From assembly GCA_034226945.1 (NCBI GenBank), contig CP120456.1:310001-374000 (forward strand): a stretch of DNA of 64,000 nucleotides, written 5' to 3'. The notes beneath the pieces were generated by a model. The model searched no databases. It was not told the origin of the DNA and was given only the letters and a program-made list of their open reading frames with translations. Below are positions 8,357 to 18,817 of this stretch, one piece after another; within the stretch, counting starts at the first letter, position 1; every line of letters starts with the position of its first letter. Source of the DNA: Picochlorum sp. SENEW3. Its lineage: Eukaryota. Made by a program: the position numbers and the translations under genes.

Positions 8357-9829
8357 ATGATTCGTCTCCTTTCCATGAATCATGTGGATAAACGAATGCG
8401 TATATCATTGTTTCTTGTCATGGTACTACTGGTTGCCAGCGAGTCTGTTGGAGTAGAAGCAGCGAATGCCCGGGTGTTGCAACACAAGGCAACCAAGCCA
8501 AAGCCCAGTCTGGCTCAGCCAGACTACACTGTGTATCACACAAAGTAGGTACTTTTGTTATTAAGTATGTAGACATGCAACACGTTATAATAATAATAAT
8601 AACCTTGCTATGTATCGCTATGATGCAGGAAAGCATTCAAGGATGCTGTTCAGAGGCTTGTGGATTCTTGTGCAGCGTTGACCATGGACATGGTGTCATA
8701 TGCGGCAGACGATGATCCGTCCTATGTTGCGAACATGAGCGTTGTAACTTTCAATAATGCAGATAGATCTGCATCCAAATCACGTGGTGATGATGATGGT
8801 CGGCTCCATGTCTTGTTGGATTTTGGTGAGCATGGTCGGGAGCTGATTTCCTCAGAGGTGGGGCTGAGTTTTCTTGCATCGCTCTGCGATGAGGCATATA
8901 GACAATCGTTAGTTACCAAGTATACTTTAGATGATACGATACAGGACGTATTGAATGCCATGGTGATCCATGTGATTCCCATGGAGAATGAACATGGGAG
9001 AGACAAGGTGGAAGAGGGCAATCTGTGTGAGCGTAAGAATGGCAGGGGTGTGGACCCGAATAGAAATTGGCCTGTAGATTGGGGTAAGAAGGAGCCTGAT
9101 TATGACCCGTCGGAAGAATATCCGGGGCCGAGGCCTTTTAGCGAACCAGAAGCTGTCGCAGTCAGGGAGATTGTGGCAACCTACAATCCAGATGTCTTTA
9201 TTAATATTCATAGTGGGATGGAGGCATTGTTTGTTCCCTATGATCATAGAAAAGATATTCCGTACAGCGAGAGTGTGAACGCGACTCTTGATAGGCTGAA
9301 CGATCTGAACACAAAGTTCTGTAATGGGTCATGTTCTGTGGGGTCTGGTGGTGCCAATGTTGGATACTTGGCCCATGGGACTGCCACAGACTACATCCAC
9401 CAGGAAATGCATGTCCCCATTACAATGACGTGGGAAATCTACGGGGACTTCTCGGCAGCCTATGAGGATTGTTTTCGTTCGTTCAATCCAGTAGATAAAG
9501 CGCACGTAGGTACATTTGTGGATCGATGGGTAGCCAGCGTGCTCTATTTTCTCCAAACATTGCCGGACCATCCATCCACGCGCGAGCGCCTTCAGACTTC
9601 GCATGAGGGACCCATCATCTTTGATCGTAAAACGATAGAAGGAAGAGGCATGATAGTAGGAGGAGTACTCGGACAAGCAGGCATGCTCTGCTTGTTCCTC
9701 TTCTTCTTCTTCCTCCTAGTCTCCTTGTGTTGGAACAGAGCCAGGCGACGGATCCCACCCATCATGCGAGGCCTCCGTCGCCAATCGGATACACCTAAAA
9801 AGGGCGCAAACCCTTATTATGCGGTATAA
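8357..9829 (+). CDS. Zinc carboxypeptidase (M14), signal peptide and C-terminal TM
   Basis: GEHGRE, RKNGRGVDPNRNW, PFSEPE, NIHSG. Intron 8545-8628. The start may instead be 8396. Confidence 0.85.
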
Positions 9830-9905
9830 ATGTATATTTAGTAATGCAATAGCAACACAGAGGCAAGTATTATCTTCTTTAAAAAAATACAAGAGCAAGA
9901 CAAGA

Positions 9906-10802
9906 ATGCGACGAAAGAAGCAAAAGCATACGAGACGAGCGTTACGATTCTATAGAATAAACTTTGGATTCCATCCTCCATATAAAATACTTGTCGATGG
10001 GAATTTCATCAATGCTATTGTTCAGCTCAAGTACGTATCCAAATGCATGGAATGACACATGGTACCAATCTGTTTTGTTTTACACTGTAATCAATTGATA
10101 TGCAGACGAGGGGATATTGAATCACAATTACGTCATTTTTTGGGAGATGCATGTCGTGTATATACCACACGATGCTGTATTCACGAATTGAAAAGTATGG
10201 GTGCAGAGCTTGGAGGTACGTCTTGGCAATGCGTGTCATGAATTCATGCCATCATCACCATCTTTACTATTGTGTATATATAATCTGATGCAGAGGCGAG
10301 GAAAGCGTCGAAACAATTGCGTATACATCAGTGTGGGCATGATCAAGAGCCAGTCTCTGCCTCTGAATGCCTCATGTCTCAAGTGGATCAAAACAACCAG
10401 GAGCATTTCTTCATCGCGACGCAGGATAGAAATTTACAAAATCAAATAACACGACAGCCGGCTGGTGCCGTCTTGTTTGCGACTGTGAATGGGATACAGA
10501 TGGAAATGCCATCAGAAAAGCAAAAATCCCATGTAGTACAGCAAGTTCAGAAAAAGATGATGCCAGGTGACATTGAGAGACAGAGCAACATGGTGGCGTC
10601 TGAACATGATCAACGTTCTAGTAGTATGAGGTATAGAGGTGTTAAGAAGGCAAAGGGACCAAATCCCTTGTCTATGAAACCGAAAAAGGATAGACACAGT
10701 GGCCATCCACCTTTGGGCAATGAGAATACAGATACAGCGACAAAGAAGAAGAATAGTAGAGTCAGAAAAAGTCGAATACGACAGGAACAGACGACTGATT
10801 GA
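9906..10802 (+). CDS. UTP23: rRNA-processing PIN-domain protein UTP23
   Basis: MRRKKQKHTRRALRFY..FGFHPPYKILVDGNF, FFIATQD, KKAKGPNPLS. Introns 10031-10105 and 10216-10293. Confidence 0.9.
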
Positions 10803-11124
10803 CATTGCAATAGACGGCGTGCGCTCATGAAGGTTCATTCAGATCCCTTGACATGCATGTGCATGAAGTACCTACAAGATTGCCCTCGGACCGGCCAATC
10901 TCGTAAAAAGCAGTTGGTCGGTCCTGTGTGATGCGTGTCATTCTGTTTGCTTCATGAAAAGATATGGACTATCAATCAATAGTGGACTGTATGTAATACG
11001 AATAGTTTGTGTTTTTCAGCGTAGATGAGGATGTTGTTGACAACCATGGCAACATACCGTTGACCAACGCGTTCCTTCTTTTTTACTCTGTGACCATACA
11101 TAGATAGATAGAGGTATTGCTGCG

Positions 11125-12828
11125 ATGAGTGTTCATACAAAAAAGATACCCATGGTGGATTCGAATGGAGTACATGTACATGGGAGGAAGCATCGTGCTC
11201 CAGCACCTCCCTCCCGGCGAAGGACGGCGTCGTTGCTCGGGTGGTTGGTCGGTCTCTTGATACTTGTCGGTCTGCGCGGATTTTATTACGGAGTACACAG
11301 TCATTCTCAGTCTCATACTTCATATTACGTTGTGTATAACAATGCGTCTCGAATAGGCGGCGGTTTGGTGGCACTGGAGGAGGTGGAGGACGACGCAGAG
11401 GTGTCGCTAGAGGCGTGTGCGGTGAATATGGCGTTTCCTGGGGTGGCTCCATTTCCTCAGACTCCACGATCCGTGATATATAAACCAATTGTGGATGGGA
11501 TGAGTGCAGATGCGTGTGCAGAGGCATTGGGGATTGACAAGGTTGCCATGCTGTTTTTGTCAAAGGGTGCTATTCACCATCATCTGTTCTGGAGGCAATG
11601 GTTTGCGTCGGCTGCTGGAAAGATTCCTCGGGAGAAAGGGTGTAGCTCGGATGGCCGTGTCATAGAATATTCAGCGTGTCAGCACATGCTGAATCCAGAG
11701 TTTCATTTTGATGATCCTGCGCAATACCAGGTGCTCTTCTCCTTGTATGTCCATGCACCTCCTGGGATGGAGCGGCATATGGATTCATTCTTCAGGAAAT
11801 ATCTCATCCCGAGGCAAGTTCAGGTTGCGTGGGGTGAGCATTCCATGATTTATGCGACGAGGGAGCTTTTATGGTACAGTTTCAAGGATCCCAGGAATAC
11901 AAGGTTTGTCTTGCTCAGCGAGAGTGATTTGCCCCTGTATGGGCCATCAACATTCTATTATCAGTTGATGAAGGAGCAGAAATCTAGAATAGATACGACA
12001 AATCTTCACCCAGTGGACTCGTATCGATGGCACTTTAGGTTTTTATGCGGTGATCCTCCCATCAAAGAGAAGGACTGGAGGAAATCGTCCCAATGGTTTT
12101 CACTGATACGCAAGCACGTGGGTATTATTCTGAATGACACGGGCGTGTATCGTACATTTGAAAAGTATTGCACATCATTTTACGATGATGTGTCAAACTA
12201 TTACCGTGTGTGTTACAGCGATGAGCATTATATTCCAGTGTTGCTGGCTGTATCGCGCGTGGAGCATGAGACCCATCCCAACCCAAATGGCATCACAGAT
12301 GTTGACTGGTCCCACGGAGGGGAGCACCCATGGGCATACACGCCGTCTCAGATACAGAAGAAGTTGTTTTATGCCAAGCTTCGAGTGACGTATGATTGCA
12401 TTATGGGAGTTGGGTCGCAAAGACAATTTATTGAGTCTGTGGAGAGGACCTATTTTGCACACATGTTTGACTCTCGTGTGAATGCCTCTGCGTCATCATT
12501 CACGTTGAATACCTCGTGTACTGCCTTGGAGGAGGAGCAAGAGGAGGAGGAAGATGAGACAGCTGGCGACCAGATGATTGGTATATTACGAAGAACAATC
12601 AGGAAGACGAAGAAAAAGCGCTATGTGGATTTGGGTCCGTCGTGTGCTCTCACGGCCAGAAAATTCAAAGCAGATACCAAGCAGGCAGTCTTGGACTTGT
12701 TTCGAGATCCAAACAAACTCGGCATCATTGATGCCCGTGTGATACAGCCCTTCAAAGATTGGTATCAGAATTATGAAGAAAGACGATTTAAATCGTTCTT
12801 TTTCGGAAGCAATGAAATAAAAAGGTGA
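11125..12828 (+). CDS. Core-2/I-branching beta-1,6-GlcNAc transferase-like (GT14-like/DUF266) type II membrane protein
   Basis: N-terminal TM; KVAMLFL, FSLYVH, VAWGEHSM, RFVLLSESDLPLY, WRKSSQWFSL, CYSDEHYIP, ARKF. Confidence 0.88.
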   Translation: MSVHTKKIPMVDSNGVHVHGRKHRAPAPPSRRRTASLLGWLVGLLILVGLRGFYYGVHSHSQSHTSYYVVYNNASRIGGGLVALEEVEDDAEVSLEACAVNMAFPGVAPFPQTPRSVIYKPIVDGMSADACAEALGIDKVAMLFLSKGAIHHHLFWRQWFASAAGKIPREKGCSSDGRVIEYSACQHMLNPEFHFDDPAQYQVLFSLYVHAPPGMERHMDSFFRKYLIPRQVQVAWGEHSMIYATRELLWYSFKDPRNTRFVLLSESDLPLYGPSTFYYQLMKEQKSRIDTTNLHPVDSYRWHFRFLCGDPPIKEKDWRKSSQWFSLIRKHVGIILNDTGVYRTFEKYCTSFYDDVSNYYRVCYSDEHYIPVLLAVSRVEHETHPNPNGITDVDWSHGGEHPWAYTPSQIQKKLFYAKLRVTYDCIMGVGSQRQFIESVERTYFAHMFDSRVNASASSFTLNTSCTALEEEQEEEEDETAGDQMIGILRRTIRKTKKKRYVDLGPSCALTARKFKADTKQAVLDLFRDPNKLGIIDARVIQPFKDWYQNYEERRFKSFFFGSNEIKR

Positions 12829-12835
12829 ATCAGGC

Positions 12836-13696
12836 ATGAAAACGAATAACAAGACGTGCCTTGCGAGTATCGGCAAGACGTGCTTTCGAAAGGATGTGTA
12901 CGAGCCTGCCGAGGTAGATTTACCGTTATGAACTGTTAAACAACCCATGTAATAATGTATTCGGATATAATTGTCGCAGGATTCGTTTCTTTTGGCGGAT
13001 GTGATTCTTGCTGACATGGACAACTGGGCATGTGCTCCGAGAATGTACGTCCATGATGCATTTATGTATTGCTTTTGATGGATTAATTCTTATGATTATA
13101 CTATATTGCATGTACAGATGTGTGGAAATAGGCAGTGGATCTGGGTATGTGGTGTGCTCGGTGGCACAGAGTCTGTCCCAGCTATGTCAGTGTTTTGCAA
13201 CTGACATCAATGCGAGTGCGTGTGCTGCGACGCAAGAGACGATTCGAAATCATGATATGGATGGACGTGTTGATGTCGTGCATTGTGATGTGGCGTCGCC
13301 GTTGGAGGATAGGTTGAAGCATGGTGTGGATCTTGTTGTTTTCAATCCACCCTATGTTGTGACACCTGATGATGAGGTTGAGGGTGATGGGATATCGGCG
13401 GCATGGGCTGGTGGTTTACGTGGGAGACGAATTATTGATAAAGTGCTACCAAAGTTGTCGTTATTGTTGTCGCCGGGGGGAATAGTGTATATGATTGCTA
13501 TTCATGATAATGACCCTGCTGGTACGTGGCATTCTTCTTGTTGATGTGTGCTACATCTGTGACCCACGTGATGTGAAATTTCTTTGTAGATATGATTCAT
13601 GTCTTGTCTGATCTGGGGATCACGGCCAGCATCGTAGCAAAGCAGTCTGCTGATGAGGAGCTCTTGTATGTGATAAAGGGAACAAAAGAGTGTTGA
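12836..13696 (+). CDS. MTQ2: HemK-family eRF1 glutamine methyltransferase (MTQ2/N6AMT1)
   Basis: Exons 12836-12913, 12980-13044, 13118-13521 and 13590-13696 give VYEPAE|DSFLLAD, EIGSGSG, FNPPYV and AWAGG. Confidence 0.9.
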
Positions 13697-13789
13697 ATGA
13701 ATGTTTACAATGTGAATCAGAAAGAATAGAAAACACAAACAAATGTAAGGTAATAGTACTGTACAATGATTCGTTATTGATACGCATCC

Positions 13790-15604
13790 TTAGAGAAGAT
13801 TGTGGTTTGCTTCGTTGGTCGCTTGGAGCATTCTGTCGACAGATTCCTGCGTCAGGGGCTTGCCTGCACGCACACTCTTCAGAATATTGATCCTCCAGGG
13901 GACTCTCAAGTGCCTCAATGCATCAGTCTCAATCTGTCTGATTCTCTCTCGGCAGAGTTGGTGGATCACACCAACTTCCTTCAAGCCGAGCCCACTCATA
14001 ATATCCTCCTCCTCTTCCTGAGTGAGATCCTCACCAAGAATCAGTTCAGACGCGACTTCCTTTAAAGCAGAAGCACTCGCTGCAGAATGGAGACCATATC
14101 GAAGTCTCAGTACATTTCTTTCTCGCAAAGGCAGCGTACTGAGCATCAAACTCAGTGTTTGCTGCAAGAATTCAGCTCTCTCCACTTCGGCAACAGGGTT
14201 CATTCCTTCTTCCTGGTCAGTTGTCAGCAGATCTTCATCCACAAGCTCCGCTCCTAGGTTACCCACGTTTGCTGAGAAATTTCCAGACAGAACATCTCCA
14301 GTTAATTTGGGGTTCCTTGCTGCATGGAGCAATGCAACCAATCTGGGGAGGGGAACCCCCATGGCAGCAGCCAGTTCTCTGTGGGTTGGAGGACTGCTGC
14401 GTCCTGGTTGCGCCTCTAATTCAGATGAAACACGCTTTAGCTTTGACAAAAACTCGACAACATGGACAGGAAGGCGGATATCTCTTCCCTGGTCCGACAC
14501 AGCTCTCGATACTGCCTGTCGAATCCACCAATGTGCATATGTAGAAAACTTGAACCCTTTGGTGGCATCAAACTTGTCAATCGCTTTCCTCAAACCCAAA
14601 AGACCTTCTGGGATCAAATCACCAAGTTCAACACCTTTTCCGCAGTATCGTTTGGCAATTGAAATAACCATTCGGAGGTTAAACTCAATCATTAGGGCAC
14701 GGGCATCCTCAGCAAGCATCACTGCCCGAGCGGCATCATGTGCCGTCTCAAGTCCGGCCGCCTGTGCCACGTCGGTCAACGACGGTCTTTGCTTCTTTTC
14801 ACGAGCAAGATTCTTCGCCGCTTCTCGAACAGACTTACCACGAGCAATGATGGAAGCCAGATGCTGTTCCTGCTTTGCAGTCAGGACTGGTGTATTTCCC
14901 AACGATACAAGAAAGCTTGTCACAGCACCACTCGAACTCGGATTCGCTCCTTTTGCTCGCCTACGCCCCCTCTTTGATTTTCTATTTCCACTCAGCCACG
15001 ACCTCAAATGCATCAAGAATTCTGTATCCTTCTCAACACACTCCATATACTTTGTGCCTGGTGACTGACGATATTGAACAGGAACACTTGGGTCTTCTGA
15101 CAAGCCATGCTTCACGAGACTTTGATTACGCTTACTATTCACCTTCATAGTAGTTTCAGCATTGCTACTGCTGGCCAGGTTGACCAACTCATCATCATCA
15201 TCGTGTTCCTCTGACTTTTTCTTTCCATGCCTCTTCCCTCTTGAACGCCTCGTCGAATGCACCAGTGGCATCGCATCTTTAGAATTCTGCATTCTATCCT
15301 TCTTCTCCTCGACGAACACCTCCATGTCCTCCTCTTCTTCCTCCTCACAACCCACCGGAGCGCCAGAGTAGAATAAAAGGGCATTCCCATCTGCCTGGTG
15401 CTGCGCATCATCCAACACAGTACGCTCGTTTCTGCTTTCAATCGCCGCACACGTCACCATCGTTCTATTAGAATATCCACGCCGGTGCTGACTACATGAC
15501 AAGGCCTTTGACGGACGAACTACTCCTCCCTTTCCCTCACAACCACACACGCCCGACAAGGACTTCATCCTGACTCCCACAGAGCTACACCCTATTTGAG
15601 ACAT
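13790..15604 (-). CDS. RPOD: Nucleus-encoded plastid RNA polymerase sigma-70 factor
   Basis: NLRMVISIAKRY, KFDATKGFKFSTYAHWWIRQAV, RERNVLRLRYGL, RERIRQIE; transit-peptide-like N-terminus. Confidence 0.92.
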   Translation of the reverse strand: MSQIGCSSVGVRMKSLSGVCGCEGKGGVVRPSKALSCSQHRRGYSNRTMVTCAAIESRNERTVLDDAQHQADGNALLFYSGAPVGCEEEEEEDMEVFVEEKKDRMQNSKDAMPLVHSTRRSRGKRHGKKKSEEHDDDDELVNLASSSNAETTMKVNSKRNQSLVKHGLSEDPSVPVQYRQSPGTKYMECVEKDTEFLMHLRSWLSGNRKSKRGRRRAKGANPSSSGAVTSFLVSLGNTPVLTAKQEQHLASIIARGKSVREAAKNLAREKKQRPSLTDVAQAAGLETAHDAARAVMLAEDARALMIEFNLRMVISIAKRYCGKGVELGDLIPEGLLGLRKAIDKFDATKGFKFSTYAHWWIRQAVSRAVSDQGRDIRLPVHVVEFLSKLKRVSSELEAQPGRSSPPTHRELAAAMGVPLPRLVALLHAARNPKLTGDVLSGNFSANVGNLGAELVDEDLLTTDQEEGMNPVAEVERAEFLQQTLSLMLSTLPLRERNVLRLRYGLHSAASASALKEVASELILGEDLTQEEEEDIMSGLGLKEVGVIHQLCRERIRQIETDALRHLRVPWRINILKSVRAGKPLTQESVDRMLQATNEANHNLL

Positions 15605-16231: not shown

Positions 16232-18307
16232 ATGGCCACTGCATCAATGGGCGGCAGCACGTGCTGCTACAACATGAGCGGTAAAACCACGTCTCAGAGG
16301 AACTGTGGCATTATGAAGCATGCGAGACACTCTTTGTTTTACAATGTACCAGCTTCATATCATAAAAGCAAGGGAGTAGCATCCTGTCGCCGTGCTCTCT
16401 CTTTTGTGTTGGCAGCCGCGGCCGAAGACGTTCACTCTGCGGCTGTGACTGGGGATGAGAATGACAATGGAATGGGAGTGTATGGGAGACAGTTGACTCA
16501 GGATGAGATATTGGCCAACTGGACTGATCGTTTCGGGGACGAGCCTCGCAAAGGGTCTGATGTGTTGGTGCAGTGTTTGGAGAGGGAGGGAGTTGATACC
16601 TTGTTTGCCTATCCTGGTGGAGCTTCGCTGGAGATTCATCAGGCGTTGACGAGGAGCGACAGTATTAGGAATATTCTTTGCAGACACGAGCAGGGTGAGA
16701 TTTTCGCGGCTGAAGGGTATGCAAAGGTGACTGGAAAGGTTGGTGTGTGTATTGCAACATCTGGGCCAGGTGCGACGAATTTGGTGACCGGGCTTGCTGA
16801 TGCGTTGTTGGATTCTGTGCCTCTTGTGGCTATTACTGGTCAGGTGCCACGTAAATTGATTGGTACTGATGGGTTCCAAGAGACGCCTATTGTGGAGGTT
16901 ACCAGGCAAATCACCAAGCACAACTATCTGGTGATGAATGTGGAGGATATCCCACGCATCATGAAGGAAGCGTTTTATTTGGCTCGTTCCGGTCGCCCGG
17001 GGCCTGTGCTTGTTGATATTCCAAAGGATGTACAGCAGACGTTGTGCCTGCCAAATTGGGATGACCCTGTGAATTTGAGGGGATACATTTCTCGTCTCCC
17101 GATGCCTGCAAAGGAAGATGAGTTGGAGGCTGTCGTCGAGGCTATTAAGGAATCGAAGAGACCAATGTTGTACGTTGGAGGAGGGTGTGTGGATGCATAT
17201 CCCGAGTTGGCAGAGTTTGTCAAGAAGACTGGGATTCCAGTGGCCCAGACATTGATGGGACTTGGAGCCTTCCCAGAACAAGATCCAATGGCATTGCAGA
17301 TGCTGGGAATGCACGGCACTGTGGCTGCAAACTATGCTATTCATGAGTCTGATTTGCTCTTGGCTATCGGTGTGCGTTTTGATGATCGTGTGACTGGAAA
17401 GCTGGAAGAATTTGCTGCTCGTGCTCGCATTGTTCACATCGATATTGACCCAGCAGAGATCAATAAGAACAAACATGCCAACATCGCCATCTGCTCTGAC
17501 AGTCGATCGGCTTTACGAGGAATGAATAATTTATTAGACGCGAGTCCTTTGAAGGATGATGCATTTGGGGAATGGTTTGCAGAAGTGGATGGCGTGAGAA
17601 AAGAGCATCCAGACAGCTATCCAACACGAGATGATGTCATCATGCCACAGCAGGCGATCGAGGTGTTGTATGAGGAAACAAATGGTGAAGCTATTGTTAG
17701 TACTGGAGTAGGACAGCATCAAATGTGGGCTGCTCAGTATTACAAGTTTGCAAAACCAAGAAACTGGGTCACCTCTGGAGGCCTTGGAAGCATGGGCTTT
17801 GGGCTGCCATCAGCTCTTGGAGCCGCAGCTGCCTTTGACGGTAAGGATGGCCGACCAAAGAAGACTGTCGTAGATATTGATGGAGATGGATCCTTCCTGA
17901 TGAACTGCCAAGAACTGGCAACTGCTGCTGTGGATGGATTGGAAACCAAATGTTTCATTTTGAACAATCAGCATCTGGGAATGGTCGTCCAGTGGGAGGA
18001 TAGATTCTACAAGGCAAACAGAGCACACACCTATTTGGGTAAGAAGGATGTCGAGTGGCACATCACGCAAGACCAGAAGGATATTTTCCCAGACTTTGTC
18101 ACCATGGCCAACTCCTTTGGAATCCCAGCCAAGCGAATCACCCACCCAGATGAACTTAGACCAGCGATTAGAGAGATGCTTGACACCCCAGGGCCATACC
18201 TCTTGGATATCATGGTTCCACACATTCAACATGTGTTGCCAATGATTCCAGGAGGTGGATCATTCAAAGACATCATTACCGATGGAGATGGAAATGACGT
18301 GTACTAA
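16232..18307 (+). CDS. ALS: Acetolactate synthase (AHAS) catalytic subunit, plastid
   Basis: [43 protein letters not shown] ThDP motif, [10 protein letters not shown]. Confidence 0.95.
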
Positions 18308-18328
18308 AACCTATTCATTCATTTTGCT

Positions 18329-18817
18329 TTACACTGTATCGTCATCAAAAGACCAATATGAATCTTTCGCAGACATGGAACCAATGCTTTTACAGTACTC
18401 TTCGTCCCCTTCAGGGCGCCTCTTCTCTGAATTACTTGCCAGCATGGACACTATGGAAAGTGCCACCTTGCTGGCTGTCAGCGCAGGTGACCAACCCCCA
18501 TCCCCATGGGCATACAGTATATCTAGACAAATATGGCCGTTCGAGTATATATGAGGATGTATGGGAATTCCCGATGCCCCACCCTGTCTCGTAAATACCA
18601 CTTCAGGAGGTTCCATGGGATATTCTTCTGAGAAGAGAAATTTCAAATGAAACACCTGCCCCGCATACAGCGGGCATCCCTCTGGACCCCTAATATACAC
18701 CAGCCATTCAAAGAGATTCTTAGTTCCTACTAATCCGAAACTCGCTCGCTCGCTACTGGGCGAACTCCAATCCTTTTTCAGTTCGCTCTGCAACCGTTTC
18801 GTTGCCAGCTGCAACAT
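18329..18817 (-). CDS. UBE2W: Ubiquitin-conjugating enzyme E2, UBE2W-like
   Basis: KRLQSEL, YPMEPPEV, HPHIYSNGHICLDIL, WSPALT, C-terminal W-x-F-D-D-D-x-V. Confidence 0.85.
   Translation of the reverse strand: MLQLATKRLQSELKKDWSSPSSERASFGLVGTKNLFEWLVYIRGPEGCPLYAGQVFHLKFLFSEEYPMEPPEVVFTRQGGASGIPIHPHIYSNGHICLDILYAHGDGGWSPALTASKVALSIVSMLASNSEKRRPEGDEEYCKSIGSMSAKDSYWSFDDDTV

Follow-up and report, generated by a model that had tools for sequence, protein, structure and literature searches.

How are two genes expressed when they follow each other on the same strand with almost no DNA between them? The question is raised by a locus of the green alga Picochlorum sp. SENEW3 (GenBank contig CP120456.1, positions 310,001 to 374,000; this stretch of 64,000 nucleotides (nt) is called the window, and its own numbering is used below), in which a GT14-like glycosyltransferase gene is followed by MTQ2. 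The intronless GT14 coding sequence (CDS) occupies 11125..12828 on the forward strand (1704 nt, 567 amino acids (aa)). Its TGA ends at 12828 and the MTQ2 ATG stands at 12836, in frame +1, with a spacer of 7 nt (12829..12835), as had been read in a first-pass annotation, which proposed either a bicistronic mRNA or interlocked transcription units. Our analysis points to the latter: GT14 and MTQ2 are probably interlocked monocistronic units, with the polyadenylation (poly(A)) signal of GT14 in the first intron of MTQ2 and the start of MTQ2 transcription inside the GT14 tail.

Judged by its domain content, the upstream open reading frame (ORF) is a GT14 or GT14-like glycosyltransferase. The Branch domain (PF02485) covers residues 202-415 (E=1.2e-39, 136.8 bits against a gathering score of 23.4), and all 30 homologs listed at E<=1e-40 (344-831 aa, in a search limited to lengths of 311-993 aa) carry PF02485 only, one being annotated as 'probable glycosyltransferase BC10'. 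Six of these homologs are named by organism, and we take five to come from trebouxiophyte green algae and the sixth from a land plant. The ORF has four paralogous matches in the genome (13.85 Mb, 14 contigs), and its C-terminal FKSxFFG-like motif is conserved as protein. The downstream gene has four exons encoding 217 aa, a model that was recovered unaided by a self-trained gene finder, and motifs and matches place it in the MTQ2/N6AMT1/HemK2 family. Its spliced product carries VYEPAED, GxGxG and NPPY; exon 3 by itself matches TIGR00537 (E=4.6e-21, under the whole-protein cut-off), and an intronless ortholog from a metagenome locus (L027) matches human N6AMT1 (E=7e-41) and passes the TIGR00537 (HemK2/MTQ2) cut-off. 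Exon 1 (12836..12913) was aligned to N6AMT1 via this ortholog and contains VYEPAE. The first-pass annotation was right that the start cannot move downstream, since no Met other than the first precedes VYEPAE and a start at the next in-frame ATG (13017) would leave the motif out; as an in-frame TAA (12818-12820) blocks extension upstream, the MTQ2 start is fixed.

Our reading turns on MTQ2 intron 1 (12914..12979, 66 nt, GT-AG). Genome-wide comparisons were made with a two-strand gene finder that was self-trained on 864 kb of the genome and cannot predict overlapping CDSs; predictions shorter than 240 nt or scoring <=12 were dropped, and 442 of 504 were kept. Of 344 donors, that of intron 1 ranks within the lowest 8, against ranks 191 and 340 for introns 2 and 3, and among the 18 short introns that hold TGTAA it is the weakest. 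As the first-pass annotation had claimed, the first TGTAA past the GT14 stop lies inside this intron, at 12948..12952: it is the sole exact copy between 12788 and 13743, at +120 from the stop, and begins 32 nt upstream of the 3' splice site. Its claim that TGTAA is the main poly(A) signal also agrees with this genome, in which no 5-mer is more enriched than TGTAA over the first 100 nt past stops (170/442 genes, against 67 in an upstream control), and we regard the copy at 12948 as the likely poly(A) signal of GT14. It overlaps the branch-point zone of the intron, at its edge, as branch-type motifs in this genome peak at -30 to -21. If intron 1 is retained, an in-frame stop at 12929-12931 ends the product after 31 aa, so that such an RNA cannot encode MTQ2.

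Evidence from RNA consists of assembled contigs from four runs (X1, X3, X9 and X19) of the 22 listed. Contigs of X19 and X1 are without joints and behave as DNA; those of X3 and X9 show spliced joints. X3 is one run, from a strain that is about 97% identical, and the variants used are among those listed. Five of the six introns that the gene finder predicts in 8400-14400 match joints and are skipped in X3; the sole exception is MTQ2 intron 1. An X3 contig of 2520 nt, tracked by its depth value, skips MTQ2 introns 2 and 3 and covers intron 1 without a joint, carrying variants at 12833, 12835 and 12926 and filling the bin 12822-13022. Its joints, 13044>13118 and 13520>13589 (cut +1), connect exon 2 (12980..13044), exon 3 (13118..13521, with the GxGxG and NPPY motifs) and exon 4 with the stop (13590..13696). 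From its length the contig ends at about 12767, inside the GT14 CDS; the piece 12767-13044 was deduced from the tables and is not itself listed. The main X3 path bridges the GT14 tail and MTQ2 with intron 1 retained, and therefore with a broken second ORF. Such a path speaks against a translatable bicistronic mRNA as the dominant form and agrees with a GT14 3' untranslated region (UTR) that extends over exon 1 and intron 1. Bridging alone is non-specific, since an X3 contig also bridges the 322-nt spacer between GT14 and the UTP23 gene before it. Contig depths as a measure of expression (in X3, 516-1062 for GT14 and 169 for the contig running through MTQ2 and the convergent sigma factor gene) would fit more GT14 than MTQ2 RNA, and were not used, as depths cannot rank genes. 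In X9, GT14 is covered in pieces to 12858 and MTQ2 exons 2-4 are without cover, a hole that proves nothing. We did not interpret a break near 12767-12796 in the X3 path, which may reflect a minor branch of whatever kind.

The same contigs bear on the idea that both ORFs yield one fused protein, by splicing or frameshift, or that the pair is an annotation artefact, which we consider extremely improbable. A 72-nt GT-AG stretch (12762-12833) does span the GT14 stop, yet as an intron it was rejected on its scores, with a donor at the 1st percentile and an acceptor below all 280 short introns, and from the sequence it would not lead into the MTQ2 frame. No such joint occurs in X3, and a methyltransferase domain is found in 0/30 of the GT14 homologs listed.

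How, then, would both proteins be made? RNA from the GT14 promoter would read past the GT14 stop, and MTQ2 exon 1, which probably doubles as GT14 3' UTR, would form that UTR together with intron 1. On this RNA intron 1 would remain unspliced, its donor being weak and 1.8 kb from the cap; in yeast, long 5' extensions block splicing of the downstream gene's intron, which has been attributed to lost help from the cap-binding complex (PMC12358841). The UGUAA in the retained intron would direct cleavage and polyadenylation of the GT14 mRNA, and any RNA reading beyond it would keep the intron 1 stop and yield no MTQ2. MTQ2 itself would come from a shorter RNA that starts a few tens of bases before its ATG, within the GT14 tail. 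ATG depletion ahead of starts in this genome extends only about 50 nt, so a start within the last GT14 codons would suffice; on this basis we place the putative start region at 12760..12830, with approximate limits. On the short RNA the weak donor would be cap-proximal, and intron 1 would be spliced out along with the signal. Since UGUAA and the branch zone overlap, splicing and cleavage might exclude each other. That the choice of transcription start governs splicing of intron 1 is more likely than that a splicing switch yields a bicistronic mRNA. The first-pass annotation had suggested such a switch, between splicing of intron 1 and intronic polyadenylation; the intronic TGTAA as GT14 signal is strengthened by our results, and the translated bicistronic mRNA loses ground, as it needs reinitiation after a 567-codon ORF, which is possible.

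Leaky scanning, described as the way in which exclusive bicistrons of Chlamydomonas, Chromochloris and Auxenochlorella are translated, is largely refuted for this locus and retains hardly any credibility. It would be helped by the short spacer, by the weak context of the first GT14 ATG at 11125 (7th percentile) and by a gene order kept in 4/4 orthologous loci; the second in-frame ATG, at 11152, has a better, average context (55th percentile). Green-algal bicistrons have a short ORF1 (medians 291-357 nt), depletion of AUGs before ORF2 and a stronger ORF2 context (PMC11892635). At 1704 nt, GT14 is far longer; 46 ATGs precede MTQ2, of which 14 score no lower than the lower quartile among predicted starts; with an observed/expected ratio of 1.41, where the genome median is 1.40, the gene sits at the 50th percentile of the 442 and shows no ATG depletion; and the MTQ2 start context is at the 19th percentile. 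A single restored AUG sharply reduced ORF2 output in the published system (PMC11892635), and the main X3 path retains intron 1. Keyword searches in the supplements of the two green-algal surveys (PMC11892635; PMC7896298) returned no MTQ2 or GT14 entry and not the pair, the sole HemK match being a PrmC-type protein. As far as leaky scanning is meant, the long ORF1, its undepleted ATGs and the weak ORF2 context count against the term 'bicistronic' of the first-pass annotation.

A bicistron translated facultatively, by reinitiation after termination, is unlikely, with some weight nonetheless. It would have one promoter; most RNA would be cleaved in intron 1 and give GT14 only, and a minority would splice intron 1 and read to 13744, with ribosomes restarting 7 nt past the GT14 stop to make a little MTQ2. 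In Chlamydomonas, a marker placed 6-10 nt behind an ORF of up to 654 codons was translated to a usable degree (PMC5144980), and the spacer is 7-10 nt in the window, in the orthologous locus L029 and in the X3 strain (identical in L029, 10 nt in X3). Also in its favour, one X3 contig joins the GT14 tail to spliced MTQ2 exons 2-4, MTQ2 has a single match in the genome, and the distances between tandem genes (n=158) show a trough, with 12 at <=40 nt and just 3 at 41-75 nt, which may mark a separate class, though the trough is a post hoc observation on predicted starts that can be over-extended. The dominant X3 path, however, retains intron 1 and stops after 31 aa, a weak donor far from the cap is expected to splice poorly (PMC12358841), three orthologous loci have spacers of 57-160 nt with intervening ATGs, and for native loci leaky scanning is favoured over reinitiation as the explanation (PMC11892635). 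Reinitiation would further meet a competing ATG of average context 24 nt upstream of the MTQ2 ATG. This ATG opens a mini ORF, Met-Lys-stop, at 12812..12820 in the MTQ2 frame, which overlaps the GT14 tail, has a context at the 50th percentile of predicted starts and is present in L029 too. In the X3 strain, the corresponding region (window 12806-12842) contains three inserted bases, and the MTQ2 start region resembles a repeat of the 12 nt around ATG 12812. It is doubtful that there is a native class of roughly 100-200 very tight pairs with long upstream ORFs in which the second ORF is translated by reinitiation, the choice between branch point and UGUAA in intron 1 setting the MTQ2 supply. Yeast 80S reinitiation is triggered by poor stop recognition (PMC11952965), and Mtq2 methylates eRF1 (PMC7708063); that inefficient termination at the end of GT14 might feed back on MTQ2, the eRF1 methylase, through more frequent reinitiation is speculation to which we attach a very low probability.

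The transcripts could also simply overlap, with MTQ2 having its own start and intron 1 no role: GT14 would end at a variant signal near its stop or deeper in MTQ2, and TGTAA would be a branch point or chance. We find this distinctly improbable. Other signals do work in this genome, as 242/442 genes are without TGTAA by +100, and one-mismatch variants of TGTAA lie at 12813, 12837, 12897 and 12934, with AATAAA at 12816; moreover, TGTAA overlaps the branch zone of an intron that has no CTRAY motif. On the other side, intron 1 alone is unspliced in X3, and TGTAA is depleted in short introns generally (18 seen against 28.7 expected in 280 introns) and over-represented in those first introns that have an upstream stop nearby. 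First introns at <=300 nt from an upstream same-strand stop hold TGTAA in 8/26 cases, against 7/122 in divergent genes (p=0.0009; 7/25 and p=0.003 without the GT14-MTQ2 locus), 3/53 in first introns of distant tandem genes and 2/117 in later introns. Shuffling gives expectations of 3.7 for the close tandem and 15.1 for the divergent group; AT content is equal between the groups, and the reverse complement shows no excess. The support from this enrichment for a GT14 signal in intron 1 is moderate.

With the most enriched 5-mer, the weak donor, the unspliced intron in X3 and the recurrence at close pairs, the interlocked units of the first-pass annotation gain support, and the spacing itself has counterparts in the genome. 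The median of the 158 tandem gaps is 282 nt; 12 measure <=40 nt and 4 of these <=10 nt, which places GT14-MTQ2 in the lowest 3%. The 7-nt gap is rare, yet belongs to a class and is not unique. In a 170-kb hold-out one of 36 tandem pairs was tight, which makes 13/194 (about 7%) at <=40 nt in all and, scaled genome-wide from 7-12 pairs, about 110-190. Among the 12 pairs at <=40 nt, 7 have TGTAA in -30..+130 of the upstream stop, which resembles the 61/122 of ordinary tandem pairs and exceeds the 41/366 around other starts (p=1e-4): tight pairs as a class keep the poly(A) signals of the upstream gene. Weak first donors were rejected as a class trait, as most donors of tight pairs are strong. The first-pass annotation saw no room for a 3' UTR plus a promoter. 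For the 3' UTR this is not remarkable: convergent gaps (n=140) have a median of 75 nt and 14 of them are <=10 nt, so that overlapping 3' UTRs are routine in this genome.

Besides GT14-MTQ2 there are 11 tight pairs; in six of them the Pfam families of the two genes are unrelated, and one (PsbR) is probably mis-started. Examples with unrelated families are PAP2_C/MAPEG (7 nt, L015:2278-3583), ARID/UBA-PUB (18 nt, L088:352-2264), glutaredoxin/JmjC (24 nt, L061-L062), metallophosphoesterase/TRIP4 (25 nt, L087:2434-4090) and the Obg/Era-like GTPases (36 nt, L115:2443-5678). The tight pair most like a leaky-scanning bicistron is an mL59-like ORF (119 aa, 5 ATGs, observed/expected 0.57) 8 nt before a 2OG-Fe(II) oxygenase ORF (L006:7349-8652, reverse strand), absent by keyword from the supplement of PMC11892635.

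Orthologous loci put the tightness in perspective. A metagenome scan returned 34 loci, four of them (L026-L029) at >=55% identity. GT14 is followed by MTQ2 in all four; MTQ2 was seen in none of the other 30 loci fetched. The two loci with enough flank keep the order carboxypeptidase-UTP23-GT14-MTQ2 plus the convergent sigma gene. L029 has the same 7-nt spacer, weak donor and TGTAA. Spacers in the others measure 57 nt with 2 intervening ATGs (L026, with intron 1), 118 nt with 2 (L027, MTQ2 intronless) and 160 nt with 3 (L028, MTQ2 intronless, TGTAA in the spacer). These longer spacers with intervening ATGs fit an ancestral separate MTQ2 start. In L026 the tight pair is instead carboxypeptidase-UTP23, with 17 nt against 76 in the window. 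The gene order is old and the tightness recent and moving between pairs, which is expected from spacer erosion and not from a fixed translational device. L027 and L028 have 63% GC, and introns are missing from MTQ2 in both and from the 5' part of UTP23 in L027. In L029 the GT14 ortholog contains an in-frame TAG (L029:242-244) just past the catalytic domain, probably an assembly error or a rare allele, since a 566-aa homolog (P0002) is full length and ends like this locus.

Several observations weigh against the interlocked units that we favour. The X3 contig runs through the whole intron into exon 2, so that some RNA passes TGTAA uncleaved; X3 contigs drop rare forms and cannot show a single transcript, and the listing covers neither 143 of the X3 strain's differences nor its donor sequence. 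Cleavage site, internal start site and cap-distance mechanism are all inferred. A TGTAA in intron 1 has a chance of 0.117 under shuffling and could be a branch point or chance, so that, with its overlap with the branch zone, the intronic TGTAA alone proves little. A distance of +120 lies in the tail of distances (the first TGTAA falls by +100 in 200/442 genes, and in the +100 to +124 bin in 8), and Chlamydomonas introns with poly(A) sites had donors that were no weaker (PMC4025486). The first-intron comparison was made post hoc with several thresholds tried, and exon 1 is independently supported in only 3/8 positives (MTQ2, UTP23 and a RINGv gene), looking false in the PsaG/K case. Omission of two doubtful cases leaves 6/24 (p=0.008), or 5/23 (p=0.024) without GT14-MTQ2 as well, and keeping just the three supported cases leaves 3/21 (p=0.17). 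At gaps <=50 nt alone, 1/7 first introns have TGTAA, which is not significant, and the hold-out, with 0/1 close and 0/33 other first introns, is uninformative as replication. Intron 1 of L026 is without TGTAA, and L027 and L028 are without intron 1. Promoters here normally have non-coding room, as none of the divergent gaps (n=137) is <=100 nt; a search for promoter motifs gave nothing usable (TGANTCA, TTTAAA and TATA-like words had no clear position), and the junction in L029 is not constrained beyond neutral expectation (7/26 against 49/137 synonymous changes, p=0.5), so that extra constraint on the GT14 tail was dropped as a sign of a hidden promoter.

Around the two genes, transcripts may overlap or abut at further places. 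A likely MTQ2 poly(A) signal, TGTAA, lies 47 nt past the MTQ2 stop (13744..13748), and the gene for a sigma-70-type factor (Pfam sigma-70 regions 2, 3 and 4) converges on MTQ2 from 13790..15604 on the reverse strand; its own TGTAA near 13705-13709 implies 3' UTR overlap with MTQ2, and a single X3 contig spans both. Upstream, in 9829-10105, the carboxypeptidase stop lies 76 nt before UTP23, and the first TGTAA to follow it (10086) lies within intron 1 of UTP23, an intron with a strong donor that X3 shows spliced. The first GT14 ATG follows the TGTAA of UTP23 (10992; region 10802-11125) at a distance of 133 nt, and the UTP23 and GT14 transcripts may abut or overlap. A 143-aa antisense ORF over the GT14-MTQ2 junction (12586-13017, reverse strand) is probably a shadow frame. 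At 18307-18329, the ends of a 724-aa ORF and of a 162-aa ORF convergent with it are separated by 21 nt, with likely 3' UTR overlap.

If GT14 and MTQ2 are interlocked in the way proposed, a compact green-algal genome would save space by placing one gene's poly(A) signal in the next gene's first intron, and the site at which transcription began would determine whether the same sequence is read as 3' UTR or as intron. Neither close spacing nor contigs that bridge two genes demonstrate a bicistron by themselves. The tight tandem pairs (about 7%), most with long upstream ORFs, form a test set for native reinitiation against promoters hidden in coding DNA, and the answer bears on transgene placement and terminator choice in such algae.

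Tight and overlapping genes in compact genomes are of a known kind: where intergenic spacers have shrunk in microsporidia and nucleomorphs, transcripts begin within the preceding gene and terminate within the following one. Those are genomes of parasites or endosymbionts, whereas the present one apparently belongs to a free-living green alga and has spliceosomal introns where the transcripts would overlap. New here would be a weakly spliced first intron that carries the neighbour's poly(A) signal, which may recur across the genome; the available text of open-licence papers and preprints, including PMC12633428 and PMC11092101, does not describe such an arrangement. The green-algal polycistronic loci (Gallaher, 2021; PMC7896298; Duenas, 2025; PMC11892635) likewise combine unrelated colinear ORFs, a short spacer (their medians are 40 and 183 nt) and conserved colinearity. 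In contrast to this locus, where ORF1 measures 1.7 kb, is normal in AUGs and is followed by UGUAA 120 nt downstream, their ORF1 is short and AUG-poor, and their upstream genes are reported to be without UGUAA (PMC7896298). The synthetic Chlamydomonas bicistrons (Onishi and Pringle, 2016; PMC5144980) are alike in their linkers of 6-10 nt and long ORF1, but were engineered and kept under selection, gave low output, succeeded with one marker only and had an ORF2 lacking intron and poly(A) signal. In yeast read-through (Barr, 2025; PMC12358841), RNA from an upstream promoter also keeps the next gene's intron, and cap distance is blamed; it arises mostly from induced termination defects, whereas here the intron would carry the normal poly(A) signal of the upstream gene. 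In intronic alternative polyadenylation in Chlamydomonas, too, an intronic UGUAA competes with splicing (PMC4025486), and both the main poly(A) signal in an intron and a weak 5' splice site are found at this locus. There, the host gene's own mRNA is normally truncated; here, the intronic signal would end the mRNA of its neighbour.

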